Shown here: positions 4,686 through 44,307 of the stretch, piece after piece
How positions within the stretch are numbered: the stretch's first letter is position 1
Layout of the letters: every line of letters begins with the position of its first letter
Notes under the pieces: generated by a model
Databases searched by the model: none
Seen by the model: the letters and a program-made list of their open reading frames with translations, nothing else
What the model was told of the DNA's origin: nothing
Made by a program: the position numbers and the translations under genes
IMG/VR virus record: IMGVR_UViG_2802429245_000013
Direction: 5' to 3' (one strand)
DNA: 45,041 bases
DNA from: a virus
Lineage: Duplodnaviria; Heunggongvirae; Uroviricota; Caudoviricetes

Positions 4686-4849
4686 CAACCTTTCAAGTAA
4701 ATTAGGGTACCGGTAACCAGAGCGGTGCAAATGATCCACGCTACTGGAGTCAGAATATGCCGAATCCCCCGACATACTGCGATTATTCTCGCAGCCTTAT
4801 CAGCCCCTTGTGGGGTTGTCTCAGCCTTAAGAATCAGTTCGCTATCCAT
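4686..4849 (-). CDS. Small membrane protein, 54 aa, C-terminal TM segment
   Basis: Hand-found ORF below track cutoff: MDSELILKAETTPQGADKAARIIAVCRGIRHILTPVAWIICTALVTGTLIYLKG; RBS AAAGG 6 nt before ATG; stop 5 nt before next gene start. Confidence 0.35.
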
Positions 4850-5009
4850 TTAGAACCTTTATGATCTCTGCGATTCCCGGAAGCGATTTAGCAACTGCAA
4901 ACCCTCCGATAACTATAAGAACTGCATAAAACATTCTTCTCAGAACCGGACTTCTTTCGAGCAATTTTAGAGCTTCCACAATCCAGTCTCCTCCGCTAAA
5001 ATTAATCAC
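4842..5009 (-). CDS. Small membrane protein, 55 aa, central TM segment, GTG start
   Basis: Hand-found ORF: VINFSGGDWIVEALKLLERSPVLRRMFYAVLIVIGGFAVAKSLPGIAEIIKVLNG; RBS GGAGG 6 nt before GTG; stop overlaps downstream ATG (ATGGATAG). Confidence 0.35.
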   Translation of the reverse strand: MINFSGGDWIVEALKLLERSPVLRRMFYAVLIVIGGFAVAKSLPGIAEIIKVLNG

Positions 5010-5064
5010 GGAAGACCTCCAAACATACGTAATTATCCCTTGCCTTATTCAAGGTCAGAAACAG

Positions 5065-5096
5065 AAAGCCCCGACTGTTTGCCCAGTCGGGGCTTT
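5065..5096 (-). terminator. Terminator-like hairpin just downstream of V-like gene
   Basis: Perfect 13-bp stem AAAGCCCCGACTG / CAGTCGGGGCTTT; on minus strand followed by CTGTTTCT (weak U-tract). Confidence 0.4.
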
Positions 5097-5134
5097 CGCT
5101 TTATGGATAGAATTTAAAGTGAAATGAACCGGTA

Positions 5135-5848
5135 TTAACCCGGATTTGGTTTCTTTGACGTGATCGTGCTGTTGCCGCTTTGAACCCCAGTCACATCGTG
5201 GCTGTGACCGCTGGCGCTGACACCTTTTATCATCGCGTCGTTTTGCACAGTAAGCGGGCCAATCAGCGAAGCAGTTGTATCCTTCATCTGGGCTTTGTCC
5301 TGGACGATCGGTCCGTTGAGGTGAATTTGACCGTTCATGAAGATATCTTCGGCCTCGAGGTAAACAGCTTTCGACTTTAGCCTGATTTCTTCCGGTGCCA
5401 CCGTTACCGAGCTACTGCCGTCCTCTGTTTTGAGGATCGCGCCATCCGGACCGTACAAAACGATTTTTTGCGGATCTTCGTCGGACCAGTCCTTGTTTGC
5501 CAGTGGCACGAAAAACAGTGGAGTGAGCGACATCGAGTAAGAAAGCGTCGCCATACCGGTTCCCAATCCGGACACACCGCGCAGGGATACATCAGCGGCA
5601 ATTGTTACTCCTCGATCGCCCGGCTGTATCGGGTAACGAATATACGGGAATGTGGCGACAGGGATTGTTATCTGCGGAAAGTTGATCCCCTCCGGCAGCA
5701 TATCAAACTGAACTGTCACTATCTGCCCGCTGACACCGACAACATGGCAGGGCAATTCACGGCCTTTAAGCTCGGCTTGCTGGTTGCCGGAAAAGGACAC
5801 CATTTCCGAAAAGCGTTGGAGAGGTAGTCGTTTTTGAGCGTTTGACAT
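5135..5848 (-). CDS. Baseplate spike / assembly protein V-like, 237 aa
   Basis: ORF track; position after hub gene; Gly/Ser-rich C-terminus typical of spike proteins. Confidence 0.5.
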   Translation of the reverse strand: MSNAQKRLPLQRFSEMVSFSGNQQAELKGRELPCHVVGVSGQIVTVQFDMLPEGINFPQITIPVATFPYIRYPIQPGDRGVTIAADVSLRGVSGLGTGMATLSYSMSLTPLFFVPLANKDWSDEDPQKIVLYGPDGAILKTEDGSSSVTVAPEEIRLKSKAVYLEAEDIFMNGQIHLNGPIVQDKAQMKDTTASLIGPLTVQNDAMIKGVSASGHSHDVTGVQSGNSTITSKKPNPG

Positions 5849-30033: not shown

Positions 30034-30252
30034 TCAGTTTTCCTTATACGGATTAATTTTATTGTGTAGTGTGTTGAACGGCGCCCATACCACGTCGTTA
30101 TACAATTCAATAACTGGCTCAATTATTTTCCCGATTGCCCAGACAAAAATTAGAGGGGATATCGGTATCATCAACACGATAAACAGAATGAGAAACAAAA
30201 ATTCTGTCGCTCTACTTTTTCGCAGATATTCTTTTCTGAATAATGTAGGCAC
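30034..30252 (-). CDS. Small membrane protein, 72 aa
   Basis: ORF track; hydrophobic core FLFLILFIVLMIPISPLIFVWAIG. Confidence 0.35.
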   Translation of the reverse strand: MPTLFRKEYLRKSRATEFLFLILFIVLMIPISPLIFVWAIGKIIEPVIELYNDVVWAPFNTLHNKINPYKEN

Positions 30253-30253
30253 A

Positions 30254-30469
30254 TCACTCTCCTTTGTTGCTCCTCAAAATTTTATGCCCTGGCGCAAAAG
30301 CACGCGTTTTGTCGGCGCTTATTCGCCACCCATCTTTACGTGCCTCTTTTGCACAGCCAGCCCATGACGTACCGATATACTCACCGAAGTCTGGTGACTG
30401 ATATTTACCATTTGTACACTGGCGACAATCACAGTAGAGATGCATGGTGTAACTTGCGGCAATAGCCAT
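30254..30469 (-). CDS. Cys-rich small protein, 71 aa
   Basis: ORF 30254..30577 trimmed to Met with RBS AAGGAG 7 nt upstream; motif CDCRQC...C. Confidence 0.4.
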   Translation of the reverse strand: MAIAASYTMHLYCDCRQCTNGKYQSPDFGEYIGTSWAGCAKEARKDGWRISADKTRAFAPGHKILRSNKGE

Positions 30470-30470
30470 A

Positions 30471-30662
30471 TCAGGCTCCTTTAGTGCGCAAGTGGTTTTT
30501 CCAGCGGTTTTGCGCCGCGCTGCGCTTATCTTTGATTCCCTCTCTGGCAATTCCAGAATATAAGTACAACACCACACGGCGATTGCTAACTCTCAACCAC
30601 TGGCTGGGATAGCAACGTCTGTATACACGGGAAATAAGCATCTTTGCTTTACGGTTTTTCAT
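30471..30662 (-). CDS. Basic small protein, 63 aa (doubtful)
   Basis: ORF track; stop overlaps downstream RBS/start. Confidence 0.25.
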   Translation of the reverse strand: MKNRKAKMLISRVYRRCYPSQWLRVSNRRVVLYLYSGIAREGIKDKRSAAQNRWKNHLRTKGA

Positions 30663-30992
30663 CGTTTTGCTCTCCTGCGTCTCTTTGCTGCACGTCGCGC
30701 CGCTGCAATACCGGTATGGCGCTTTGGTGCCGGGATAATATTGTCAGCCATCATGACATGTGGAATAACTGTTAATGACGACGCCCCAAACCGCACCAGA
30801 TACGGCAATAAACAATTTTCCATCCGCATTTCTCACCTCAATTGATCTGAATATCAGTAATTGTTTGTTGCAACCATTCTTTAGTTAGTTCTGCCATTTT
30901 TATTACCGCCCTTTCGGGCGGCCTCCGGATGATTTGAGGGTGCAGGAATCCCTCCGGTTAAGGATTAAAATTATTTACAGTGCTAAATTTAA

Positions 30993-31349
30993 TTATTCAG
31001 TTCTGTTTTTTTTCGCCCTGCGTATCCGCGCTTTCGCGTTACGCTCAATCTGAATTAACTTTTCTATATTTTTCCGCCTTTCCTGTTCCTCCTGGCGCAA
31101 TAGCCTTACATCATCTGCCAGTCTGGTTTCTCTTTTCGCCACAGAGAGCATCCAGTCAAACGGCTCCACAACTGCACCGCAGATTTTACAGCGGACCTGA
31201 CGCTCTTTTTCGTCAACCCGAACAGAGGCGTGATGACAATATGGTCTTTCCGATGACTCATAAAGAAAATTAACCTGATTACGTGGGTCATCCTCTTTTA
31301 CCGGAAATAAAACAATATTACTTAACTCATCTTCTGGTTTTATTTCCAC
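30993..31349 (-). CDS. Hypothetical protein with CxxC motif, about 118 aa, GTG start
   Basis: ORF 30993..31430 trimmed to GTG 1 nt after upstream stop with RBS AAGGAG; C-terminal basic stretch. Confidence 0.4.
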   Translation of the reverse strand: MEIKPEDELSNIVLFPVKEDDPRNQVNFLYESSERPYCHHASVRVDEKERQVRCKICGAVVEPFDWMLSVAKRETRLADDVRLLRQEEQERRKNIEKLIQIERNAKARIRRAKKNRTE

Positions 31350-31350
31350 G

Positions 31351-31881
31351 TCACTCTCCTTTGATGCGAATGCCAGCGACGCGTGGCACATTAACTTCCA
31401 CGATGCGCACATTTGGTTTGTACATCTCAATCGCTGTCAGCCAGTCAGCGCCGGTCATACGCTTTTCTGCATCGCCATTAGTCCATTGAACCGGCGCACC
31501 AATAGCTTTCATCGCAATTTCTATTTCCCCGGCAATGGCGCTTTTCCCGCAACCAGTAAAACCAGATACAACGACAAGAACTTCACCTTTGGCTGGTTTT
31601 ATTTCCCGTGCTTCCAGTTCTGCAATGCGCTTTTTGGCTGCTTCCAGTTCATCCAGTAGTGCCTGCACTACTGCTGGGTTGAAAGCTGCGATATAACGAG
31701 CGTTGTTCTCTGCGTTTTTCTGTCCGTCAAAGCCGGGCCATTTGATAACGTCTTCACATCGTTTATCACCGGGCGTATGCACCGCATACGTACCAGTACC
31801 CGACGAAATAAATGCGCACCATTCGCCCTGCGTGGCCTGTTTTGCTATCTTACGCAGTACCTTATATTCAATTTTGCCCAC
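31351..31881 (-). CDS. Ead/Ea22-like protein, 176 aa
   Basis: N-terminal region ...ATQGEWC...[28 protein letters not shown]... shared with paralog at 32131..32778; GTG start with RBS GGAGG. Confidence 0.5.
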   Translation of the reverse strand: MGKIEYKVLRKIAKQATQGEWCAFISSGTGTYAVHTPGDKRCEDVIKWPGFDGQKNAENNARYIAAFNPAVVQALLDELEAAKKRIAELEAREIKPAKGEVLVVVSGFTGCGKSAIAGEIEIAMKAIGAPVQWTNGDAEKRMTGADWLTAIEMYKPNVRIVEVNVPRVAGIRIKGE

Positions 31882-32134
31882 TGGTCGCCTCCGCTTCCCA
31901 CGTTTTCAGACTTTCACCACAGAACGGGCAAAATGAAACCCGAACTGGTGATTTAGAAAATTCACCGGAACGCAACATCACCAAATCAGGGCCGCGAGTT
32001 AAACTCTCATTCCAGATTTTGTATATCAGCAGACCTTTTCGCGTCGTGTATTCAGCATCATGCTCAAGGGATTTTGCCAGAGCCGTACACGGTTCTATCT
32101 TGTTGCCATTAATTTGGCATTTTGACTCACTCAC
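31868..32134 (-). CDS. Small Cys4 zinc-ribbon-like protein, about 88 aa
   Basis: ORF 31868..32167 trimmed to GTG overlapping upstream stop (GTGA) with RBS AAGGAG; Cys pattern C-x10-C ... CPFC. Confidence 0.4.
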   Translation of the reverse strand: MSESKCQINGNKIEPCTALAKSLEHDAEYTTRKGLLIYKIWNESLTRGPDLVMLRSGEFSKSPVRVSFCPFCGESLKTWEAEATSGQN

Positions 32135-32778
32135 TGGTTGTCTCCTTTGCGAATCTGTTCCACCCATTCTTCAAGGGATTTCTCCGCATATTCACCGGAC
32201 AGGCCATCAATCGGGTGCGGTTCATTAGCCAACTCTTCTTTCGCTGACAGAATCATGCGCGTAACGTCGAAAACTTCACGTAAAGACTTATTGATAAATC
32301 CGTGGTTGAAAGCAGCAGCAAGACGGCTGGCGGTATAGTTAATCCCCTCGTTGCGAGCCTCCGCACGTACTTCAGCCAGGAAAGCATCGGTGGCTGGGGT
32401 TTGCGGCATCCTTCCGTCTATTGCGCAGATATACGCATCAGATAGTTCATCCTGCTCGCCATCAAACACGTAGCAACTCTGTACGATAAATTTATTCAGC
32501 CCCGCATTCTCCGCCGCCAGCGCCACAAGATTAGCTTCCAGCTCTGCAATGCGTTTGCTTTGGGCTTCCCGTTCATCAAGCACTGCCAGCACGGTAGCCG
32601 GATTGGCTGCCGCTATGAATCGCTTATTGGCGCGATTATCTGGTCCTGAGCATGATGCTATGTAGTAATTTGCGTTCAGTCCGGCATCGGCAATTACCCC
32701 ATAATCATCAGAACACCATTCGCCAGGGGTTGCATTTTCTGCCGCCATTCGCAGTGCCTGGTAATTAATGTTGCTCAC
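32131..32778 (-). CDS. Ead/Ea22-like protein (paralog), about 215 aa
   Basis: ORF 32131..32808 trimmed to GTG with RBS AGGAGG; N-terminal ...ATPGEWC...[28 protein letters not shown]... Confidence 0.5.
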
Positions 32779-33508
32779 TGGTTTCCTCCTGGCAAAGCTG
32801 GGCGACAATATCGCGATATTTATTCAGCTCCCGCAGCGCGGCGCAGACTCGCTCCCATTTCCGGATATCACTTTTCGCCCGACGCAGTTCGCGGTTTGCC
32901 TGTCGCAGCGATGGCAGAACCAGATTATCCACTCGCTTCTCAAGCGGCTGCACAATGTCCGCCACAGTTTCTGTTTTAATATCTTCCTGTGTTGCAGCTT
33001 CCTGTACTGGTAACGCAACATATGCAGGCTGAGGAAAGGCTTTACCATCAGTTTCCGCTACCGATGCCGCTTTCGGCTCTGCTGGTAAATTACCGCCCGG
33101 CATGCAGTAACGAAATTTACCGTTCTGATTAACACGAATCAGACGACCTTTGCTGATTGCCATTGCCAGCGTTGAAGCCACTTTGCGGGATGTTGTACCG
33201 AACAGAGTAGCCAGTTCATCCGCCGTTTGTGGTCCGCGTTGTTCAATCGTCGCGGTTAAATCGCACTCTGAGATTTTCGCTACTGTCGCCGTGGTGGTTT
33301 CTTCCGGCTGTTCTTCTGGCGCTGGCTGTTCCTGCTGAACGTTGTTATCAGCCACACGCCAGGTGTATACGCTTTTATCAACGAAGCCAGCCTTTTTCAG
33401 TTCCCACAGCTCGTTCAGTACTTCTTCACGACTGATATCAAGTCGCGCAGCCAGCTCTACCGACGTGGCTTTTCCCATCGCTTTCAGTGCGTCAAAAACA
33501 GTCTCCAT
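32765..33508 (-). CDS. Winged-helix DNA-binding protein of early region, 247 aa
   Basis: ORF track; N-terminal HTH-like [30 protein letters not shown]; RBS GGAGG. Confidence 0.45.
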
Positions 33509-33528: not shown

Positions 33529-34275
33529 TTACTTTTCAATACCTGGCTGACCAACATTCGGGCGCCAGCTCTCCCAGTTAAAATTCACCCAGCGCCCGCC
33601 GTTCATGGTCATGCGATCCATAATCCGCTCGCCGAGCAATGTTTTCATGGCCTCATAGTTCAGGTTTGTCAGCATTCCCACGCTACGCATCGACGCTGTC
33701 CGTCGATCAATAATCTGGTGCAGTACCACCTGCTCGTTTTTCGTCTCGCGCTGAATGCCAATTTCATCAAGAACCAGCAGATCCACTTCGCACAGTTCCC
33801 GCAAAAATTTTTCGCCTGACTGCCCGTCGTCATAGCTGGCGTGCAGGGCGCTCATAACATCAGCCACGGTAACCACAATCACTGTCTGACCGTCTTTCAG
33901 CAGGCGATTCCCGATAGCTGCCGCTAAGTGATTCTTCCCGGTACCAGGTTTTCCGCTGAACGCAAAATTTGTACACCCGGTCATCAGTTCATCGGCGATG
34001 GATTTCGCCTGGCTTAACGCGTATCGCTGGTCGTCGTTCTGCACCTGGTAATTCGCAAACGAGCATTTACGGTGCAACGGCTGGATGCCTGAGCGATTCA
34101 GAATTTTTTCCACCCGCAACTGGCGATTCAGGCGGTTGATCTCCTCGCTACGTTTCTGGCCTTCAGCAAGTTGCCACTCGCGCCACTCCGCAACCGTTCT
34201 GAATGGGGCGGTTACATGTGGTGGGGCCAGTCTGCGGATACGCTCCAGAACGCCTCCTGTCGCAATATTTTTCAT
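33529..34275 (-). CDS. DnaC-like replication helicase loader (IstB-like AAA+ ATPase), 248 aa
   Basis: Walker [18 protein letters not shown] and Walker [10 protein letters not shown] in ORF translation; follows O-like gene. Confidence 0.75.
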
Positions 34276-34281
34276 GGTCTG

Positions 34282-35070
34282 TTACCCCCTGAAGCCTGGC
34301 GGGATCGCACTGTCCGGCAACGAGACGGTGTTAACCTGTCGGAGCAACGTCTCAGGCCGAACGCCTTTCGGCGCGAACAAGCCCTGGTATTCATTGGCGA
34401 TGCTGTGTCTAATCACCTGCTCAGGGGTAAAACCCTGCTGGCGGAATTTTTCCAGCTCCCGTATCGCCCCGTTAGCGCCCTGCTCCGTTCGAATCGGTTT
34501 TCGTAATGCCTGTCTGAACCGGACCCACTCATGCCAGAGTGTTTCCGGCAACCAATCGGGCAACTCAATAGCCTCCGGCTCGAATTTTTTAGATGCTCGT
34601 TTTTGGCGAGGGGGATTTAGGGGGAGATCAGTATTTATATCTTCCTCTTCCTCTTCCTCTGGTAACGCTTTTTGATCCGTTTGTGTAACGCTGCCAGCGT
34701 TACCTTTTCGTTTCAGCTCGCGTAATTTTGTAACCCTCTCGTTTGTAATCGCCCGTTTTTTAGAGCTTTTTCCGTTATGGCGTTCAAAGTTAGGTAGAGA
34801 AAGCCCAACGTCATTTTCGACCAGCCATCCAACCTGAATTAACGCATCAGCAAAACCAGCCATAAAAGTGATGCGATCTATTGCACTTTTTGTAACGCCG
34901 CGAGCGTTACAATCTGCATTACCGTCTATCATTTGTTGATCCGCCCATGCCCAGAAGCGAATAACCTTCCCTAATGCGGCATCTGGATCAATATTCAGAA
35001 TCTCAGCAAGCCTGAATATTTCCGGCTTATCCGGCGTAATAACCTCGAGCTTTATCCAGTTTGAAGCCAT
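34282..35070 (-). CDS. Replication initiation protein (O-like / YdaU-like), 262 aa
   Basis: ORF track; position between CII-like and DnaC-like genes; acidic linker EEEEEED; contains two 19-bp palindromes. Confidence 0.5.
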   Translation of the reverse strand: MASNWIKLEVITPDKPEIFRLAEILNIDPDAALGKVIRFWAWADQQMIDGNADCNARGVTKSAIDRITFMAGFADALIQVGWLVENDVGLSLPNFERHNGKSSKKRAITNERVTKLRELKRKGNAGSVTQTDQKALPEEEEEEDINTDLPLNPPRQKRASKKFEPEAIELPDWLPETLWHEWVRFRQALRKPIRTEQGANGAIRELEKFRQQGFTPEQVIRHSIANEYQGLFAPKGVRPETLLRQVNTVSLPDSAIPPGFRG

Positions 35071-35147: not shown

Positions 35148-35570
35148 TCAATGCACTACGACAGAATCACCGGGCGACCCACCACCGCTGAAATGTGCTT
35201 TCCGGTAAACGGCCTGGACTGCATCATCATGCGCATCAATTGCCGTACTCAACGCTTCCTGCGCCGCCAGTAATGCACGGCGTTCCAGGGTATCGAAGAT
35301 GCAGAGTCGGTGACGCAGCTCGCGCGGAAGAATTGCCAGAACCGCAGGGATCAGTGTCTGAATTTTTTCCCTTTGCGCTTTCGTTTCACCTTTTAACCAA
35401 CGGTGATAGATGTTCTGCTGATTATTCCAGTCCTTGCCTGGTACCAGGGGCAATTCGCCGCCCCCCTGGCGCAGATATTCTTCAGTAATTGCATTGGCTA
35501 CCCATGCCTGCCCTTTTTCAGCGGCCAGGGCTAACAGCACTGATTCGATGTGCTCATGCCTGATTTTCAT
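35148..35570 (-). CDS. CII-like / YdaT-like regulatory protein, 140 aa
   Basis: ORF track; second gene of the Cro-side operon. Confidence 0.45.
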   Translation of the reverse strand: MKIRHEHIESVLLALAAEKGQAWVANAITEEYLRQGGGELPLVPGKDWNNQQNIYHRWLKGETKAQREKIQTLIPAVLAILPRELRHRLCIFDTLERRALLAAQEALSTAIDAHDDAVQAVYRKAHFSGGGSPGDSVVVH

Positions 35571-35936: not shown

Positions 35937-36398
35937 ATGAAAAAAACACGCGAAGTGATTGCAACTCCAGAAGCGAGCAAGAATTTAAAAGCCGCATGGA
36001 ATGCAAGAAAAAAAGAGCTGAAGCTGACTCAAGAGCTGGCGGCTGAGTTGTTGGGATTCGAATCTCAAGGCACCGTTAGCCAGTATCTGAACGGCAAGAT
36101 ACCGGTAAATACCGACGCTGCGCTAAAATTTGCGGCTCTATTAAAGGTAAAACCAGAGGACATTCGAGAAGACCTTAAAGACTTAATGAATTATGTAAGA
36201 TCATCAGATACTTATGATGATAGCTTTTCAGGCAAAGGATGGAGGCTGGTCAATGAAGAACAGGCTGAGTTACTTAACCTCTTCGAGATTCTACCTGCGT
36301 CAGAAAAAGCCAAACTCCTTAACCAGCTACGTGGACTAAACAAGCTCTACGAGGAAGCCTTCGAGAACATGCTGGCACTAAAGAAACGTAACCAGTAG
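35937..36398 (+). CDS. CI/RacR-like prophage repressor (XRE-type HTH), 153 aa
   Basis: HTH LTQELAAELLGFESQGTVSQYLNGK; divergent from Cro-like gene; own terminator downstream. Confidence 0.6.
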   Translation: MKKTREVIATPEASKNLKAAWNARKKELKLTQELAAELLGFESQGTVSQYLNGKIPVNTDAALKFAALLKVKPEDIREDLKDLMNYVRSSDTYDDSFSGKGWRLVNEEQAELLNLFEILPASEKAKLLNQLRGLNKLYEEAFENMLALKKRNQ

Positions 36399-38209: not shown

Positions 38210-41200
38210 ATGAGCACAAAACCACTCTTCCTGTTACGGAAAGCGAAAAAATCATCCGGTGAACCTGACGTCGTCCTGTGGGCAAGCGACGATTTTGAAT
38301 CGACCTGTGCCACTCTGGACTACCTGCTCGTTAAGTCAGGTAAAAAACTGAGCAACTATTTTAAAGCTGTTGCCACAAATTTTCCTGTCGTTAATGACCT
38401 TCCCCCTGAAGGTGAGATCGATTTTACCTGGAGTGAACGCTATCAACTCAACAAAGACTCCATGACCTGGGAACTAAAACCGGGAGCAGCGCCAGACGAC
38501 GTTCACCATCAGGAGGATGCACCGGAAACCGAAGAACCGACGGGAGGCCAGGAAGAAAACGCGCAGGCAGACGCCCACGAGGATTGCCAGGATTGCGAAG
38601 TCTCTGTAGCCACTTTGCGGTTCACACAGCGTCTTCTGCACATTTTTACGTATGCAGCCGGGGATCGAAAATACCTGCATCATGCCACCCGTGAACAACG
38701 CAAACACATTACTGCTCTTGAGATGGATCAGGAAAACAGCTATGTCCAGAATCTGCTGTTGGCCATACGCAGCATGGCAGAACCGACAACTCTGGATAAT
38801 GCCGCCCTGCTCCGCCTGACTGATGCAATTAAGGCAGTGTTCTCTATCACGAAAAAACATCAGCCCTATGAATTTAAGAATTTCATTTCAGCCTGGCTGG
38901 ATACCGAACACATTGATCGCGGTCTTCTGACAAAAGAATGGCGAAAAGGGAATCGTGTTTCACGCATCACTCGCACGGCTTCCGGTGCTAATGCTGGCGG
39001 CGGGAACCTCACCGATCGCGGCGAAGGTTTCGTCCACGATCTGACGTCACTGGCGCGCGATGTAGCCACTGGCGTACTGGCCCGTTCAATGGACGTGGAC
39101 ATCTATAACCTTCATCCGGCACACGCTAAACGCATTGAGGAAATTATCGCTGAAAATAAACCGCCCTTTTCTGTTTTCCGCGACAAATTCATCACCATGC
39201 CTGGCGGGCTGGATTATTCCCGCGCCATCGTGGTTGCGTCCGTGAAAGAAGCACCAATTGGGATCGAGGTCATCCCCGCACACGTCACTGAATATCTGAA
39301 CAAAGTACTGACTGAAACCGATCATGCCAACCCTGATCCGGAAATCGTGGATATTGCCTGCGGTCGCTCCTCGGCCCCGATGCCGCAGCGAGTAACAGAA
39401 GAAGGAAAACAGGACGATGAAGAAAAACCACAACCATCTGGCGCAATGGCAGATGAACAGGCAACGGCTGAAACAGTGGAACCGAATGCAACTGAACATC
39501 ATCAGAACACGCAGCCGCTGGATGCTCAGTCACAGGTAAATTCTGTTGATGCGAAATATCAGGAACTGCGGGCAGAACTCCATGAAGCCCGGAAAAACAT
39601 TCCATCAAAAAATCCTGTCGATGCCGATAAATTGCTTGCTGCATCACGTGGTGAATTTGTTGACGGAATTAGCGACCCGAACGATCCGAAATGGGTTAAG
39701 GGGATCCAGACTCGCGATTCTGTGTACCAGAACCAGCCAGAAACGGAAAAAATCAGCCCGGATGCGAAACAACCTGAGCCAGTAGTGCAACAGGAACCGG
39801 AAATAGTCTGCAATGCCTGCGGTCAGACTGGCGGGGATAACTGCCCTGACTGTGGTGCGGTGATGGGCGACGCAACGTATCAGAAAACCTTTAATGAAGA
39901 AAATCAGAATGAATATCAGGAAAAAGGTCTGGAGGAAATGGAAGGCGCTGAACATCCGCACAATGAGAATGCTGGCAGCGATCCGCATCGCGATTGCAGT
40001 GATGAAACTGGCGAAGCGTCAGCTCCTGTAGCAACTGAAATCATGTGGCCGTCATATTTCGAGCCAGGCCGCTATGAAAACCTCCCGAACGAGGTTTATC
40101 ACTCCGCCAACGGAATAAGCAGCACGATGCTGAAGGATGCCCGTATCAGCCTGATGTATTACCACGGGAGGCACATTGCCGGAACTATTCCGAACGAGGA
40201 AAGTGATGCACTGCTGCGTGGGCGGATCATTCACAGCTATGTTCTGGAAACGGATAAATTCGCTGATGAATATGCCATTCCGGTACCGGTTCCTGAATAT
40301 GTGGTTACTACTTCTAACGAACTGATCGCCATCATTAAAAAACACAATGCCAGTCTGCCAGCACTGATGACACCAGAGCAGATGAAAGAGTGGATCGAAA
40401 GCTACAACAGCACTCTTATACAGCCACTGTCTGTAAGTGCTGGGGCCGAAGAAACAGGCATCCTTTACGGTTCACTTCCGGTGGAATTTCGGCGTATTCC
40501 TGAGGGGGAAAAACACACAGCATCAGCAATGAAAGCCTGTATTAAAGAATACAACGCAAGCCTCCCTCCTCTGTTGAAAACCAGTGGAGCACGGGAGCAG
40601 CTTCTGGATCAAATTGAAACTGTAGACCCAGAACTGGCAAAAAAAGAACGTGCTAAATCGTTGCCTTACAACATCAGTGGCACAAAAGAGCAATTAACCG
40701 AAATCGCACGGAAAATTCGCCCGGAACTGGTGACACTGGAGGACTGGCAAAAACGCCAGCAAGAAGAAAACGCCGGGAAAACGTTTATCAGTCCGGATAT
40801 GTATGAACAGGCAAAAAATATTCACGCGGCACTGCAAAACAATACCGATGCAGCAAGGCTACTCAACCACCCGGATCGCAAATCTGAAATCAGCTATTTC
40901 GGGTTTGATGAAGAAACCGGGCTGGAAATCAGGGTCCGCCCTGATATCGAAATCCGGCTGCCATACGAAAGCATTTGCGCTGACGTGAAGTCAGTCAGCC
41001 TCGGTTATGTGCGGCAGGAACGACTTAAAGATCGCCTGCACCTTGAAATTATTGAGCGTGATTATCACCTCAGCGCCGCAATGTATTGCGATGTGGCAAA
41101 CCTGGACAAATTTTTCTGGATCTTCGTCAACAAAGATGTTGGCTATCACTGGGTGGCAGTCGTGGAAGCCTCGCAGGAACTCCTGGAGCTTGGTCGACAG

Positions 41201-41335
41201 GAATATCGCCGGACGCTACGCCAGATAAACGAAGCCCTAGAGACAAACAACTGGCCAGCACCTATTACCGAAAGTTACACCGACGAATTAAACGACTTTG
41301 ATCTTCGTCGTCTTGAAGCACTGCATCTGGCTTAA
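38210..41335 (+). CDS. recE: RecE-like exonuclease VIII, 1041 aa, with C-terminal PD-(D/E)XK (YqaJ/lambda-exo-type) nuclease domain
   Basis: N-terminus [26 protein letters not shown]... and central ...[30 protein letters not shown]... recognised as RecE; C-terminal ...RPDIEIRL...ADVKS... nuclease-like. Confidence 0.75.
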
Positions 41336-42438
41336 TGGAGAACCTGACCATGCAAAATACCAATATCATCACGACAGAGCAGACACCAAATACCATTTCT
41401 GCCAGTAACACTATTTTTAACGTTCAGGCGTTGACGCAACTTCAGGAAGTAGCCGGGTTGATGTCACAGGCCACCGTCACAGTTCCCGATCACCTTCGCG
41501 GAAAACCTGCCGACTGCATGGCAATTATCATGCAAGCCATGCAATGGGGCATGAACCCCTACGCTGTGGCTCAGAAAACACACCTGGTAAACGGAGTTCT
41601 GGGTTATGAAGCACAACTGGTTAACGCTGTGATCTCTAGCTCAAGTGCAATTGTAGGCCGCTTCCATTACAAGTACGAGGGAGACTGGGAGAAATGCTCT
41701 CGCACCCGAGTGGAGACCGTTAAGAAAACGGCCAAAGGAGGCGGAATCTATGAGAAAAAAGAAACGATCCCATGTTGGACCAGTGAAGATGAGTATGGTC
41801 TATCAGTTCGAGTGGGTGCAGTTCTTCGCAGTGAAAGTGAGATTACCTGGGGAGAACCGGTGTTTCTTTCCAGCGTGATTACGCGTAATTCTCCTTTATG
41901 GACCTCAAACCCGAAACAACAGCTCGCCTATCTGGCGTTGAAATACTGGGCTCGCCTTTATTGTCCTGACGTCATCCTGGGCGTGTATACCCCCGACGAA
42001 CTGGAAGAGCCACAGGAAAAAATCATCAATCCTGTGCCGGTACAGAATTATAGCGAGGTAAGCGAGCAGCGAACAGAAACCATCGAACAGCGTATTGACG
42101 AAGCGTGGATTGATGAATTCCGGCAGCGCGTCGAAAGCGCGGCCACGACTGAGGAAACCACTGCATTACGCCAAGAGATAGAGGATCAGAAAAACCAGAT
42201 CGGCGAATTCTTTGCCGAGCTTAAAGGAAAAGTGGTTCGGCGCCATCACCGTCTCAATGCTATTGCCAGTATCGAGAAGATGATAAATGACCTGCCTTCA
42301 TCAGGTGATCCAGAAGCAGAACAAAAATTTACTGCTCTGGAAAATACGCTGAATGCTGCACGACCACATCTGGGTGAATTATATGAGGCGTATAAAACGA
42401 CACTGACAGATATAAAACCAGAATATATCAGCTCCTAA
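41335..42438 (+). CDS. RecT/Redbeta-type single-strand annealing protein, 367 aa
   Basis: Immediately downstream of recE with overlapping stop/start (TAATG); recombinase partner position; N-terminus does not match the K-12 RecT sequence as I remember it. Confidence 0.55.
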   Translation: MENLTMQNTNIITTEQTPNTISASNTIFNVQALTQLQEVAGLMSQATVTVPDHLRGKPADCMAIIMQAMQWGMNPYAVAQKTHLVNGVLGYEAQLVNAVISSSSAIVGRFHYKYEGDWEKCSRTRVETVKKTAKGGGIYEKKETIPCWTSEDEYGLSVRVGAVLRSESEITWGEPVFLSSVITRNSPLWTSNPKQQLAYLALKYWARLYCPDVILGVYTPDELEEPQEKIINPVPVQNYSEVSEQRTETIEQRIDEAWIDEFRQRVESAATTEETTALRQEIEDQKNQIGEFFAELKGKVVRRHHRLNAIASIEKMINDLPSSGDPEAEQKFTALENTLNAARPHLGELYEAYKTTLTDIKPEYISS

Positions 42439-42983: not shown

Positions 42984-43265
42984 ATGAATCTTGTGACACT
43001 CAAAACGTGGGGAAAACTCAGATATCCGGATAACCCACCATCAATATCAACGCTGAGACGATGGGCAAGGAATGGAAACATTTATCCTGCACCTGAACTA
43101 CACGGGAGGAGTTACAGGGTGGTTCCGGAGGCTTTCTATATCAACCCAAATAAGGTTGATACCGATATAACACACCATCAACCTAATGGGCGACAAGGGA
43201 GAGACAGTCCGTTACTGGAGAAGTTAAAACATGCAGCGGAAAAAATACGATCCCAATTTGCCTAA
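42984..43265 (+). CDS. xis: Excisionase (Xis), about 93 aa
   Basis: ORF 42909..43265 trimmed to Met with RBS AAGAGG; ...TLKTWGKLRYPDNPPSISTLRRWARNGNIYPAPEL... resembles lambda Xis; overlaps int start by 35 nt. Confidence 0.6.
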   Translation: MNLVTLKTWGKLRYPDNPPSISTLRRWARNGNIYPAPELHGRSYRVVPEAFYINPNKVDTDITHHQPNGRQGRDSPLLEKLKHAAEKIRSQFA

Positions 43266-44307
43266 AAACTTAACATATCGAAGGAGGGACAAAGCATATT
43301 ACTGGCGCAACCCTCTGACGAAAGAAGAATTTACACTAGGTAAAATTTCAAGGAGAGATGCAGTAGCGCAGGCAATTGAAGCAAATCATTATATATACAA
43401 AAACTACTCTCCTGCAGCCTTAATTGAAAAGCTTAAAGGGTTCGACTCATTTACTATGGCAGACTGGATTGAACGTTACAAAACGATTCTTATAAGGAGA
43501 AAAGTGTCCAGAAATACTTATAAAATTCGGATAAATCAACTGGAGACAATAAAAGAAAAATTGGGAGGAATTTTACTGACAGAAATAACCACTCGCCATA
43601 TTGCCGAGTTTCTTGATTTGTGGATTGAAGGAGGGAAAAACACAATGGCAGGATCAATGCGTTCTGTGTTGTCTGATATGTTTCGCGAGGCCATTGTTGA
43701 AGGACGTATATCTCAAAATCCAGTAACGCCAACAAGAGCACCGAAAATAGTAGTTACAAGAGAACGACTGAAACTAAAGACATACAACTGCATCAGGGAG
43801 GCAGCAGATCAACTTCCGGCATGGTTCCCATTAGCTATGGATTTAGCCCTTGTAACAGGACAACGTCGCGAAGACATAACGAATATGCGGTTCAGTGATA
43901 TTTATGATGATCGTCTCCACATCAGGCAAATTAAGACAGGAATGATGATTGCTATCCCCCTGTCACTCAGCCTTCCTGTCGCTGGTCTACGGCTTGGTAC
44001 AGTAGTTGAACGGTGCCGCCTGGTAAGCCGGGGAGATTATCTAATCAGTGCCGGGATTAGAAAAAACAGCCCTGACGGCAGCATTCACCCGGATGGCCTG
44101 ACAAAAAAATTTGTCGCAGCCAGAAAATTAACAGGTATCCAGTTCAGTGAAAACCCACCAACTTTTCACGAGATCAGAAGTCTGGCTGGACGATTGTACA
44201 AAGAAACATGTGGAGAAGAATTTGCCCAGCGCCTACTTGGTCACACATCGGAGAAGACAACAAAAATGTATCTTGATGAGCGAGAAAAAACGTACTTACT
44301 GCTCTGA
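43231..44307 (+). CDS. int: Integrase, lambda-family tyrosine recombinase, 358 aa
   Basis: N-terminus aligns with lambda Int by eye ([38 protein letters not shown] versus MGRRRSHERRDLPPNLYIRNNGYYCYRDPRTGKEFGLG); C-terminal [11 protein letters not shown]...[13 protein letters not shown] catalytic region. Confidence 0.85.

Follow-up and report, generated by a model that had tools for sequence, protein, structure and literature searches.

Why do consecutive genes of a prophage, two encoding Ea22-like paralogs and the one between them a small cysteine-rich (Cys) protein, all start with GTG in nearly the same sequence context? The question is raised by IMG/VR record IMGVR_UViG_2802429245_000013 (Caudoviricetes), a stretch of 45,041 nucleotides (nt) that we refer to as the window, in which four GTG-started genes are tightly packed along the minus strand in the order Ea22a, small Cys gene, Ea22b and zinc-ribbon-like gene. 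We favor, with a probability of roughly 0.7, the reading that the first three starts, which share the motif ACCAGTG, are copies of a type II linker that would act both as a coupled initiation region for translation and as a seam for cassette exchange through short homology. The type II linker (consensus AAAGGAGGCAACCA-GTG-AGC) consists of a 7-nt Shine-Dalgarno sequence (SD; AAGGAGG), a 6-nt spacer and GTG, with the upstream gene terminated inside or beside the start, and it would circulate among the lambdoid and Rac-like prophages of Escherichia coli (E. coli).

The shared context was first pointed out from the letters of the window alone, as three consecutive GTG genes behind near-identical SD-spacer-ACCAGTG sequences, and it is indeed found at positions 32778 (ccAGGAGGAAACCA-GTG), 32134 (aAAGGAGACAACCA-GTG) and 31881 (gcGGAGGCGACCA-GTG), that is, at the junctions called J1, J2 and J3 here (Table 1). 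Where that original prediction counted two starts overlapping the upstream gene, all three in fact do so, by 14, 4 and 14 nt: Ea22a starts inside the end of the DUF1627 gene (stop TAA at 32765-32767), the last seven codons of which (...QEETSEQH) are encoded by the linker together with the opening 14 nt of Ea22a; the Ea22a stop (32131-32133) shares a GTGA with the start of the small Cys gene; and the stop of the latter (31868-31870) lies within the beginning of Ea22b. It had also attributed the ACCAGTG context to both small cysteine-rich genes; both do start with GTG, but the start context of the one at 30993-31349, the zinc-ribbon-like gene, is AAAGGAGAGTGAC-GTG. The window contains three copies of the pattern GGAG-N2-5-ACCAGTG, where chance would give 0.06, and none of 100 shuffles reaches three. 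J1, J2 and J3 agree pairwise at 14-15 of 20 positions (-14 to +6), as compared to 496 control pairs drawn from the 32 other SD-led starts of the window, 1.2% of which reach 14/20 and none 15/20, and they match the family consensus at 16-18 of 20 positions (J1, 17/20), as opposed to at most 11/20 for the control starts. With CAACCA and GTG-AG conserved as well, the similarity exceeds what generic ribosome-binding-site composition gives, the explanation named at the outset as the refutation of the idea. An independent repeat search placed the boundary of direct repeat D2 exactly at the SD and joined J1 and J2 by a 17-nt direct repeat of 88% identity (family D5); a search for tandem repeats found none. 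The bare ACCAGTG motif is itself frequent, with 14 copies against 3.6 expected from dinucleotide shuffles, just three of them gene starts; codon or amino-acid usage may account for the excess represented by the eleven copies away from gene starts.

Stop/start overlaps of the ATGA or GTGA kind are a textbook route to translational coupling in bacterial and phage operons. The three overlaps above, together with a 1-nt gap at a fourth junction (J4, before the zinc-ribbon-like gene) and an SD placed within the upstream gene, give the window the anatomy of coupled pairs, and the genes, packed head to tail, are presumably translationally coupled. Could such coupling alone, with initiation sites optimised independently and without shared descent or recombination, have produced the resemblance? 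An SD of AAGGAGG, 6-nt spacing and a GTGA overlap are textbook coupling features, and a second stereotyped junction (type I, below) is present in the same operon. We nevertheless regard convergent selection as quite improbable: the spacer CAACCA, for which we know of no role in initiation, is 65-89% conserved per position, the control SD-led starts of the same prophage fall far from the consensus as mentioned above, the exact 16-mer recurs in at least 120 viral contigs, and conserved RNA structure was not found at the junctions. On the last point, 80-nt folds at the four junctions differ from one another (z of -0.2 to -1.7) and Rfam gave no match at E<0.1 in 30700-33000, and a reading of the element as RNA structure was accordingly rejected; likewise, Chi, EcoKI and Dcm sites, compared by eye with ACCAGTG, do not match it.

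The extent of the sharing became apparent in about 280 prophage loci overall, 157 of them IMG/VR loci fetched via the two Ea22 N-terminal domains. Nearly all of the 191 Ea22-like starts in the fetched loci lie behind aAGGAGGCAACCA-GTG-AGC regardless of the sequence further upstream. In 123 unique Ea22-type junctions, the majority base accounts for 65-98% at each position from -12 to -1, conservation drops abruptly to background upstream of -14, and the start is GTG in 100 (81%). Open reading frames (ORFs) that are not Ea22-like also carry the type II leader. When ascertainment via Ea22 was removed by scanning IMG/VR for the exact 16-mer AGGAGGCAACCAGTGA, at least 120 stretches were recovered; among the matches listed, 129 occurrences comprise 86 before Ea22-like ORFs, 34 before other families and 9 before no ORF, the 34 representing at least 12 unrelated families (e.g., methyltransferase-like, PAPS-reductase-like, small Cys, a membrane protein and several unknowns). 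Thus, over the loci as a whole, upstream contexts of more than 40 unrelated kinds meet Ea22-like genes or members of at least 12 unrelated families at the linker. By comparison it is a seam, the same 16-19 nt separating dozens of different upstream and downstream genes. A 68-nt consensus junction is found in 1420 of 5426 complete E. coli genomes (at least 26%), with as many as seven places in one genome. Plasmids of about 93 kb with tandem ead/Ea22-like genes hold 278 of the 2005 consensus-junction matches; these are presumably phage-plasmids, in which case the linker pool would be common to integrated and plasmid prophages. Among species-representative genomes, an exact 18-mer has 36 matches, two in Escherichia and the rest across unrelated phyla, with about 17 expected by chance; the exact linker is a feature of the Escherichia prophage pool, and the 18-mer scan says little more.

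Is it the DNA that is conserved, or the peptide that it encodes at the end of the upstream gene? The upstream genes run into the linker in either of two frames, about equally often, and end ...RKGGNQ (53 cases; frame A) or ...EATSEQx (52 plus variants; frame B). In frame A the stop is the TGA of GTGA; in frame B it is a TGA or TAA at +12 to +14, from Ea22 codons 4-5 (ATT GAC or ATT AAT), or lies at +6 to +8. J2 uses the first frame, and because J1 and J3 use the second, DUF1627 and the small Cys protein have similar ends (...EETSEQH and ...EATSGQN) although they are unrelated. Since the linker is read in two frames, its conservation belongs to the DNA and not to a C-terminal peptide, and type II C-termini such as ...KGGNQ are ruled out as functional protein motifs. 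Caution is therefore advised with C-terminal "motifs" in the Ea22 family, which reflect the DNA of the junction and not features of the protein.

Alternative cassettes at the same junctions, which the original prediction proposed to look for in other prophages, were indeed found, with breakpoints clustering at the edges of the linker. Clustering of the flanks of 230 junctions (120 nt on the upstream side, 180 nt on the downstream side) gave 48 upstream and 26 downstream clusters in 82 combinations, including 36 four-gamete quartets. In pairs that agree downstream but differ upstream, homology ends between -11 and -17 in 1096 of 1222 cases; in pairs that agree upstream but differ downstream, it ends either at +4/+5 (60 pairs; non-Ea22 cassettes) or at +21 to +33 (177 pairs; Ea22 N-domain variants sharing VSKIDYQALRE). 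The interval between the DUF1627 and zinc-ribbon-like genes elsewhere holds Ea22b alone, DUF977, or Ea22, DUF4752, a hypothetical gene and Ea22 in a row. Relative to an E. coli locus (L001), the window has an extra Ea22a and small Cys gene between two copies of the linker plus Ea22 5' end; the blocks of homology overlap by 74 nt in L001, a stretch made up of the linker and ~60 nt at the start of the Ea22 ORF, so that the indel is bounded by the D2 repeat. In a second locus (L161), DUF977 replaces the whole Ea22a-Cys-Ea22b block; homology to the window breaks off about 27 nt 5' of the start codon at J1 and picks up again at 31378, where the J4 linker begins. A third locus (L162) carries a hybrid Ea22 with a b-like N-domain and an a-like C-domain.

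Cassettes between two linker copies are thus present in some prophages and precisely absent in others. A systematic search returned six filled/empty pairs with flanks at least 90% identical and a 16-19-nt linker direct repeat, and in the three pairs inspected this linker is the sole repeat at the cassette ends. In one of them (L182, filled, vs. L165, empty), the cassette belongs to the small Cys gene family and lies between two non-Ea22 neighbours; hence, the small Cys gene, bounded by J2 and J3 in the window, appears to behave elsewhere as a linker-bounded cassette that is present or absent. Alternatively, the linker could simply be the ancestral 5' leader of Ead/Ea22, duplicated together with the gene, and not homology used in recombination; unrelated genes would then have obtained it by illegitimate recombination into the first Ea22 codons, with functional joints selected (a Hendrix-type model). 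J1 and J3 do precede true paralogs, with similarity running ~62 nt into the coding region, Ea22-like ORFs follow 72% of the motif-ascertained occurrences that have an ORF (among the matches listed), and the linker is shorter than known minimal pairing segments. Yet at least 12 unrelated families begin exactly at GTG-A, with joints at +4/+5, where independent illegitimate events would be expected to scatter; a cassette with non-Ea22 genes on both sides still has the linker at both ends (L182 vs. L165); and the linker is the only direct repeat in the inspected pairs. We therefore consider this hitch-hiking scenario unlikely. Direct repeats of a fixed ~19-nt sequence bounding cassettes, and the precise presence/absence polymorphisms, could also be taken to indicate a dedicated site-specific system, in which the linker would be a recombinase site akin to integron attC or shufflon sfx. 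This appears very improbable, given that the linker is not palindromic, not attC-like and without a shared fold, that the window encodes a single tyrosine recombinase, the prophage integrase, which lies about 10 kb away, and no recombinase among the neighbouring genes, that the four proteins give no defence or recombinase family matches, and that homology frequently runs far past the linker. Hence, of the idea that the conserved junction marks a boundary for shuffling, the boundary itself is borne out by the breakpoints, the 82 combinations and the pairs bounded by linker repeats, while homology-driven exchange at the linker is what we infer from them.

The fourth junction in the window belongs to a second kind of linker (type I; pattern AAAGGAGAGTGA-n-ATG/GTG), which would work like type II and which bears on an oddity in the literature: Dydecka et al. 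report a +GE tripeptide for the Ea22 proteins of lambda and Stx phages, its significance being unknown (PMC7093339). The simplest reading is that +GE would be the SD of the downstream gene (AAGGAG) read in frame, AAA GGA GAG TGA, as part of the type I linker, and the published oddity would thereby gain an explanation. Ea22b ends in IKGE and Ea22a in KGDNQ, and the end of lambda ea22 (GGCATTCGCATCAAAGGAGAGTGA) is identical to J4 over the same 24 nt. Out of 135 unique Ea22-like ORFs, 53 end in (K/R)GE and 24 in KGxxQ; the next ORF starts within -4 to +4 of the base after the stop in 50 of the 53 +GE-ending ORFs, and the GTGA overlap is present in 24 of the 24 KGxxQ-ending ones. The (K/R)GE motif appears from these counts to track the junction type and not the Ea22 family, and the ...GIRIKGE tail is common to at least eight unrelated C-terminal domains. 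The type I pattern joins 23 upstream to 20 downstream clusters, a set defined by the pattern itself, and in L161 the type I sequence persists as a non-coding leader before the zinc-ribbon gene. The type I junction also recurs along the operon, at 30250-30270 and 30467-30485 (minus strand) besides 31347-31377; the cases are the passage from Ea22b to the zinc-ribbon gene, that from a 71-amino-acid (aa) Cys protein to DUF4014 (...SNKGE-stop-tGTG), and a variant ending ...TKGA-stop-tATG.

How would cassettes move? Under the reading we favor, recombination over short homology between copies of the linker would add, remove and exchange them. Where present, the adjoining Ea22 N-terminal coding sequence, the ...CAGCTTCGC (...QLRK) tail and the coiled-coil segment would extend this homology, and the RecE/RecT proteins of the prophage would probably catalyse the exchange while the phage replicates. 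Mosaics are produced on short, diverged homology, independently of RecA, by RecT of Rac and by Red-beta (PMC3945230), and homology-driven exchange at the linker, most plausibly by the prophage RecET, would be what the sequence patterns reflect. Several points weigh against this view. The bare linker, at 16-19 nt, is shorter than the published minimal segment for efficient pairing (23-27 bp for Red-beta, 31-34 bp for RecA; PMC3945230), and exchange at the linker alone should therefore be rare; much exchange probably proceeds via longer adjacent homology, e.g., the Ea22 N-domain. J1 and J3 are just ~70% identical over 76 nt and hence have not been homogenised recently. A strong SD, the GTGA overlap and fixed spacing are also expected under selection for coupled translation, and part of the conservation may thus be functional rather than recombinational. 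In addition, the loci were ascertained by homology to the window proteins or by motif and de-duplicated by exact sequence only, so that the counts do not represent independent events, and the type I statistics depend on the pattern that was searched for.

Both paralogs match the Ead_Ea22 profile PF13935 above the gathering score (cut-off 27), over residues 2-94 in Ea22a and 3-92 in Ea22b. As originally suggested, they share an N-terminal core and differ at their C-termini: they are 45% identical over 91 aa (E 1e-15), the alignment being confined to residues 1-91, and the C-termini are unrelated. The published Ea22 architecture consists of an N-terminal domain, a coiled coil and a variable C-terminal domain (PMC10834534, PMC7093339), and both paralogs show it, with a putative coiled coil: Ea22a has the Ead_Ea22 domain, a short coiled-coil region and an unrelated C-terminal domain ending ...EQIRKGDNQ, and Ea22b the Ead_Ea22 domain and a C-terminal domain with a GFTGCGKS motif, ending ...AGIRIKGE. 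Direct repeat D1, in the coiled-coil segment, would represent the intragenic boundary between N-domain and C-domain. The Ead/Ea22 family is pro-lysogenic in lambda and Stx phages (PMC7093339, PMC10834534). The small Cys protein (phrog_4030) and the zinc-ribbon-like protein (phrog_1621) are unrelated to each other; the latter has CHH...CXXC followed by a basic helical tail, and its match to PF08271 is weak and under the cut-off. None of the four proteins matched NCBIfam or PADLOC, comparison of both paralogs with PDB sequences gave nothing under E 0.6, and a single-sequence AlphaFold2 model of Ea22b was unusable, with a predicted local distance difference test (pLDDT) of 38. In Ea22b, GFTGCGKS (residues 107-114; 31540-31563) is Walker-A-like and comes after VLVVVS, a hydrophobic strand; the motif does not vary among 10 homologues, in which the domain, of ~80 residues and without a Pfam or PDB sequence match, is joined to differing N-terminal or coiled-coil parts.

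The prophage is lambdoid and Rac-like, and the four genes belong to a block lying downstream of its replication genes (Table 1). Homologous E. coli loci carry identical GTG starts in RefSeq/PGAP annotation, the zinc-ribbon gene included, and the start calls for the four genes gain support from the linker result. GTG leads five of the seven GTG/ATG-led genes at 30034-32778 on the minus strand (Ea22a, small Cys, Ea22b, zinc-ribbon and DUF4014, the last at 30252) and about 11% of genes window-wide by a crude gene call.

Table 1. Coordinates of the genes, junctions and direct repeats discussed in the text
Feature	Coordinates	Strand	Sequence or size	Remarks
Prophage context	window	- (genes studied)		Rac-like lambdoid prophage
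Integrase (prophage Int)	43231-44307
RecT	41335-42438
RecE	38210-41335
Repressor	35937-36398
YdaT	35148-35570
O-like protein	34282-35070
DnaC-like protein	33529-34275
DUF1627 (YdaW-like) gene	32765..33508	-		Pfam PF07789, 288.7 bits
Ea22-like a	32131..32778	-	215 aa, GTG start	PF13935, 70.0 bits; phrog_368/614
Small Cys-rich gene	31868..32134	-	88 aa, GTG start, CX9C...CXXC	phrog_4030, E 5e-41
Ea22-like b	31351..31881	-	176 aa, GTG start	PF13935, 76.2 bits; phrog_250/11761
Zinc-ribbon-like gene	30993..31349	-	118 aa, GTG start	phrog_1621, E 6e-56
Junction J1 (putative type II linker copy)	32774..32792	-	CCAGGAGGAAACCA-GTG-AG	upstream gene reads frame B, 14-nt overlap
Junction J2 (putative type II linker copy)	32130..32148	-	AAAGGAGACAACCA-GTG-AG	GTGA overlap; upstream frame A (...KGDNQ)
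Junction J3 (putative diverged type II linker copy)	31877..31895	-	AGCGGAGGCGACCA-GTG-GG	upstream frame B (...EAEATSGQN), 14-nt overlap
Junction J4 (type I linker)	31347..31377	-	GCTGGCATTCGCATCAAAGGAGAGTGA-C-GTG	encodes Ea22 +GE tail; SD of next gene
Direct repeat D1	31610..31692 with 32534-32616	-	83 nt, 71%	coiled-coil segment common to both paralogs
Direct repeat D2	31817..31892 with 32714-32789	-	76 nt, 72%	linker + first ~62 nt of each Ea22 paralog

Further along the minus strand, a conserved ~95-nt non-coding element (30897-30992) lies 3' of the zinc-ribbon-like gene: TAATTAAATTTAG..CTGTAAATAA...CCGGAGGGATTCCTGCACCCTC...GGAGG-CCGCCC-GAAA-GGGCGG-TAAT. It contains two hairpins, the second with a 6-bp stem and GAAA loop (30906-30921), and is found at 21 places in the fetched loci, where the genes upstream (zinc-ribbon or an Ea22 ending ...RAPE) and downstream vary. 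It is without a T-run, and neither the terminator scan nor Rfam picked it up; perhaps it is a boundary element of a third kind, or a hairpin of the RNA-stability or antitermination type. Next to it, at 30838-30897, a 19-codon ORF (MAELTKEWLQQTITDIQIN-stop) resembles what would be left of a 135-aa gene after truncation; L001 carries this gene intact (4819-5226; MAELTKEQLIEEAK...).

As at least a quarter of complete E. coli genomes contain it, the linker offers a very common test case for the origin of phage mosaicism, that is, for the debate between homologous recombination at conserved linkers and random illegitimate joining followed by selection. It is suited to this debate in being short and sharply bounded, in adjoining many unrelated genes and in flanking cassettes that are precisely present or absent. 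One may go further and propose that the linkers and the portable Ea22 N-terminal segment form a plug-and-play cassette array, in which the adaptor would supply SD, start and stops in both frames; we consider this extension doubtful. If it were true, any cassette could be captured, expressed and exchanged by a phage single-strand-annealing recombinase, and the locus would be an integron-like hot spot for accessory (possibly anti-defence) genes that operates on homologous, not site-specific, recombination.

It is important to place these findings against known systems. Like lambda Ea22 and P22 Ead, both paralogs have the same N-terminal Ead_Ea22 domain, a short coiled coil and unrelated C-terminal domains, and lambda Ea22 shares the ...GIRIKGE end of Ea22b as well as the GTG-AGC start. 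In contrast to lambda ea22, the genes studied here are not in the exo-xis region and are two tandem copies with a cassette between them, and the leader of lambda and 933W-type ea22 is different (AGAGAGGTTCGAA-GTG). In Stx2 converting phage I (L318; AP004402.1, 2372-2951, also NC_004913.3), the depositors' annotation marks repeats within the genome ("arrangement c, d, e; region II/IV"), which take in an Ea22-like gene at its 5' end together with its leader, the leader being of the lambda type (AGAGAGGTTCGAA-GTG-AGC) and not the ACCA type; repetition of the segment within Stx phages was thus noticed long ago. Systems of translational coupling share the GTGA or 14-nt overlap, the SD in the last codons of the upstream gene and the weak GTG; unlike ordinary coupled pairs, one initiation region is found here word for word among many unrelated gene pairs, with stops in two frames. 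Integron cassettes and shufflons are likewise arrays of promoterless cassettes with a short conserved repeat between them and presence/absence polymorphism, but here there is no dedicated recombinase or structured site, and the repeat lies within coding sequence and acts as a ribosome-binding site.

The closest parallels concern recombination itself. Rad52-like recombinases (Red-beta, RecT of Rac, Erf) with relaxed homology requirements have been described as a source of mosaicism (De Paepe et al. 2014, PMC3945230), and here too RecE/RecT are encoded and the segments exchanged have short or diverged homology on either side, although the homology goes down to 16-19 nt, as opposed to 23-27 bp, and the case is made from sequence patterns. 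Conserved boundary sequences at the junctions of lambdoid modules have long been proposed as targets of homologous recombination (Susskind & Botstein 1978, modular theory; Clark et al. 2001, phage HK620; as summarised in PMC3233612). They are likewise short, located at gene boundaries, conserved between unrelated flanks and coincident with mosaic breakpoints, and the linker has the same attributes, namely unrelated flanks, a position at gene boundaries and breakpoints at -11 to -17 and +4/+5. The Ea22 family, its variable C-termini and conserved lambdoid boundary sequences are all established, and the junctions, in this respect, illustrate phage mosaicism cleanly but as expected. The apparent addition, as far as Clark et al. 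2001 can be compared via PMC3233612, is a specific linker with sharp limits, read in two frames and shared by many cassettes, together with filled and empty sites and an explanation for +GE.

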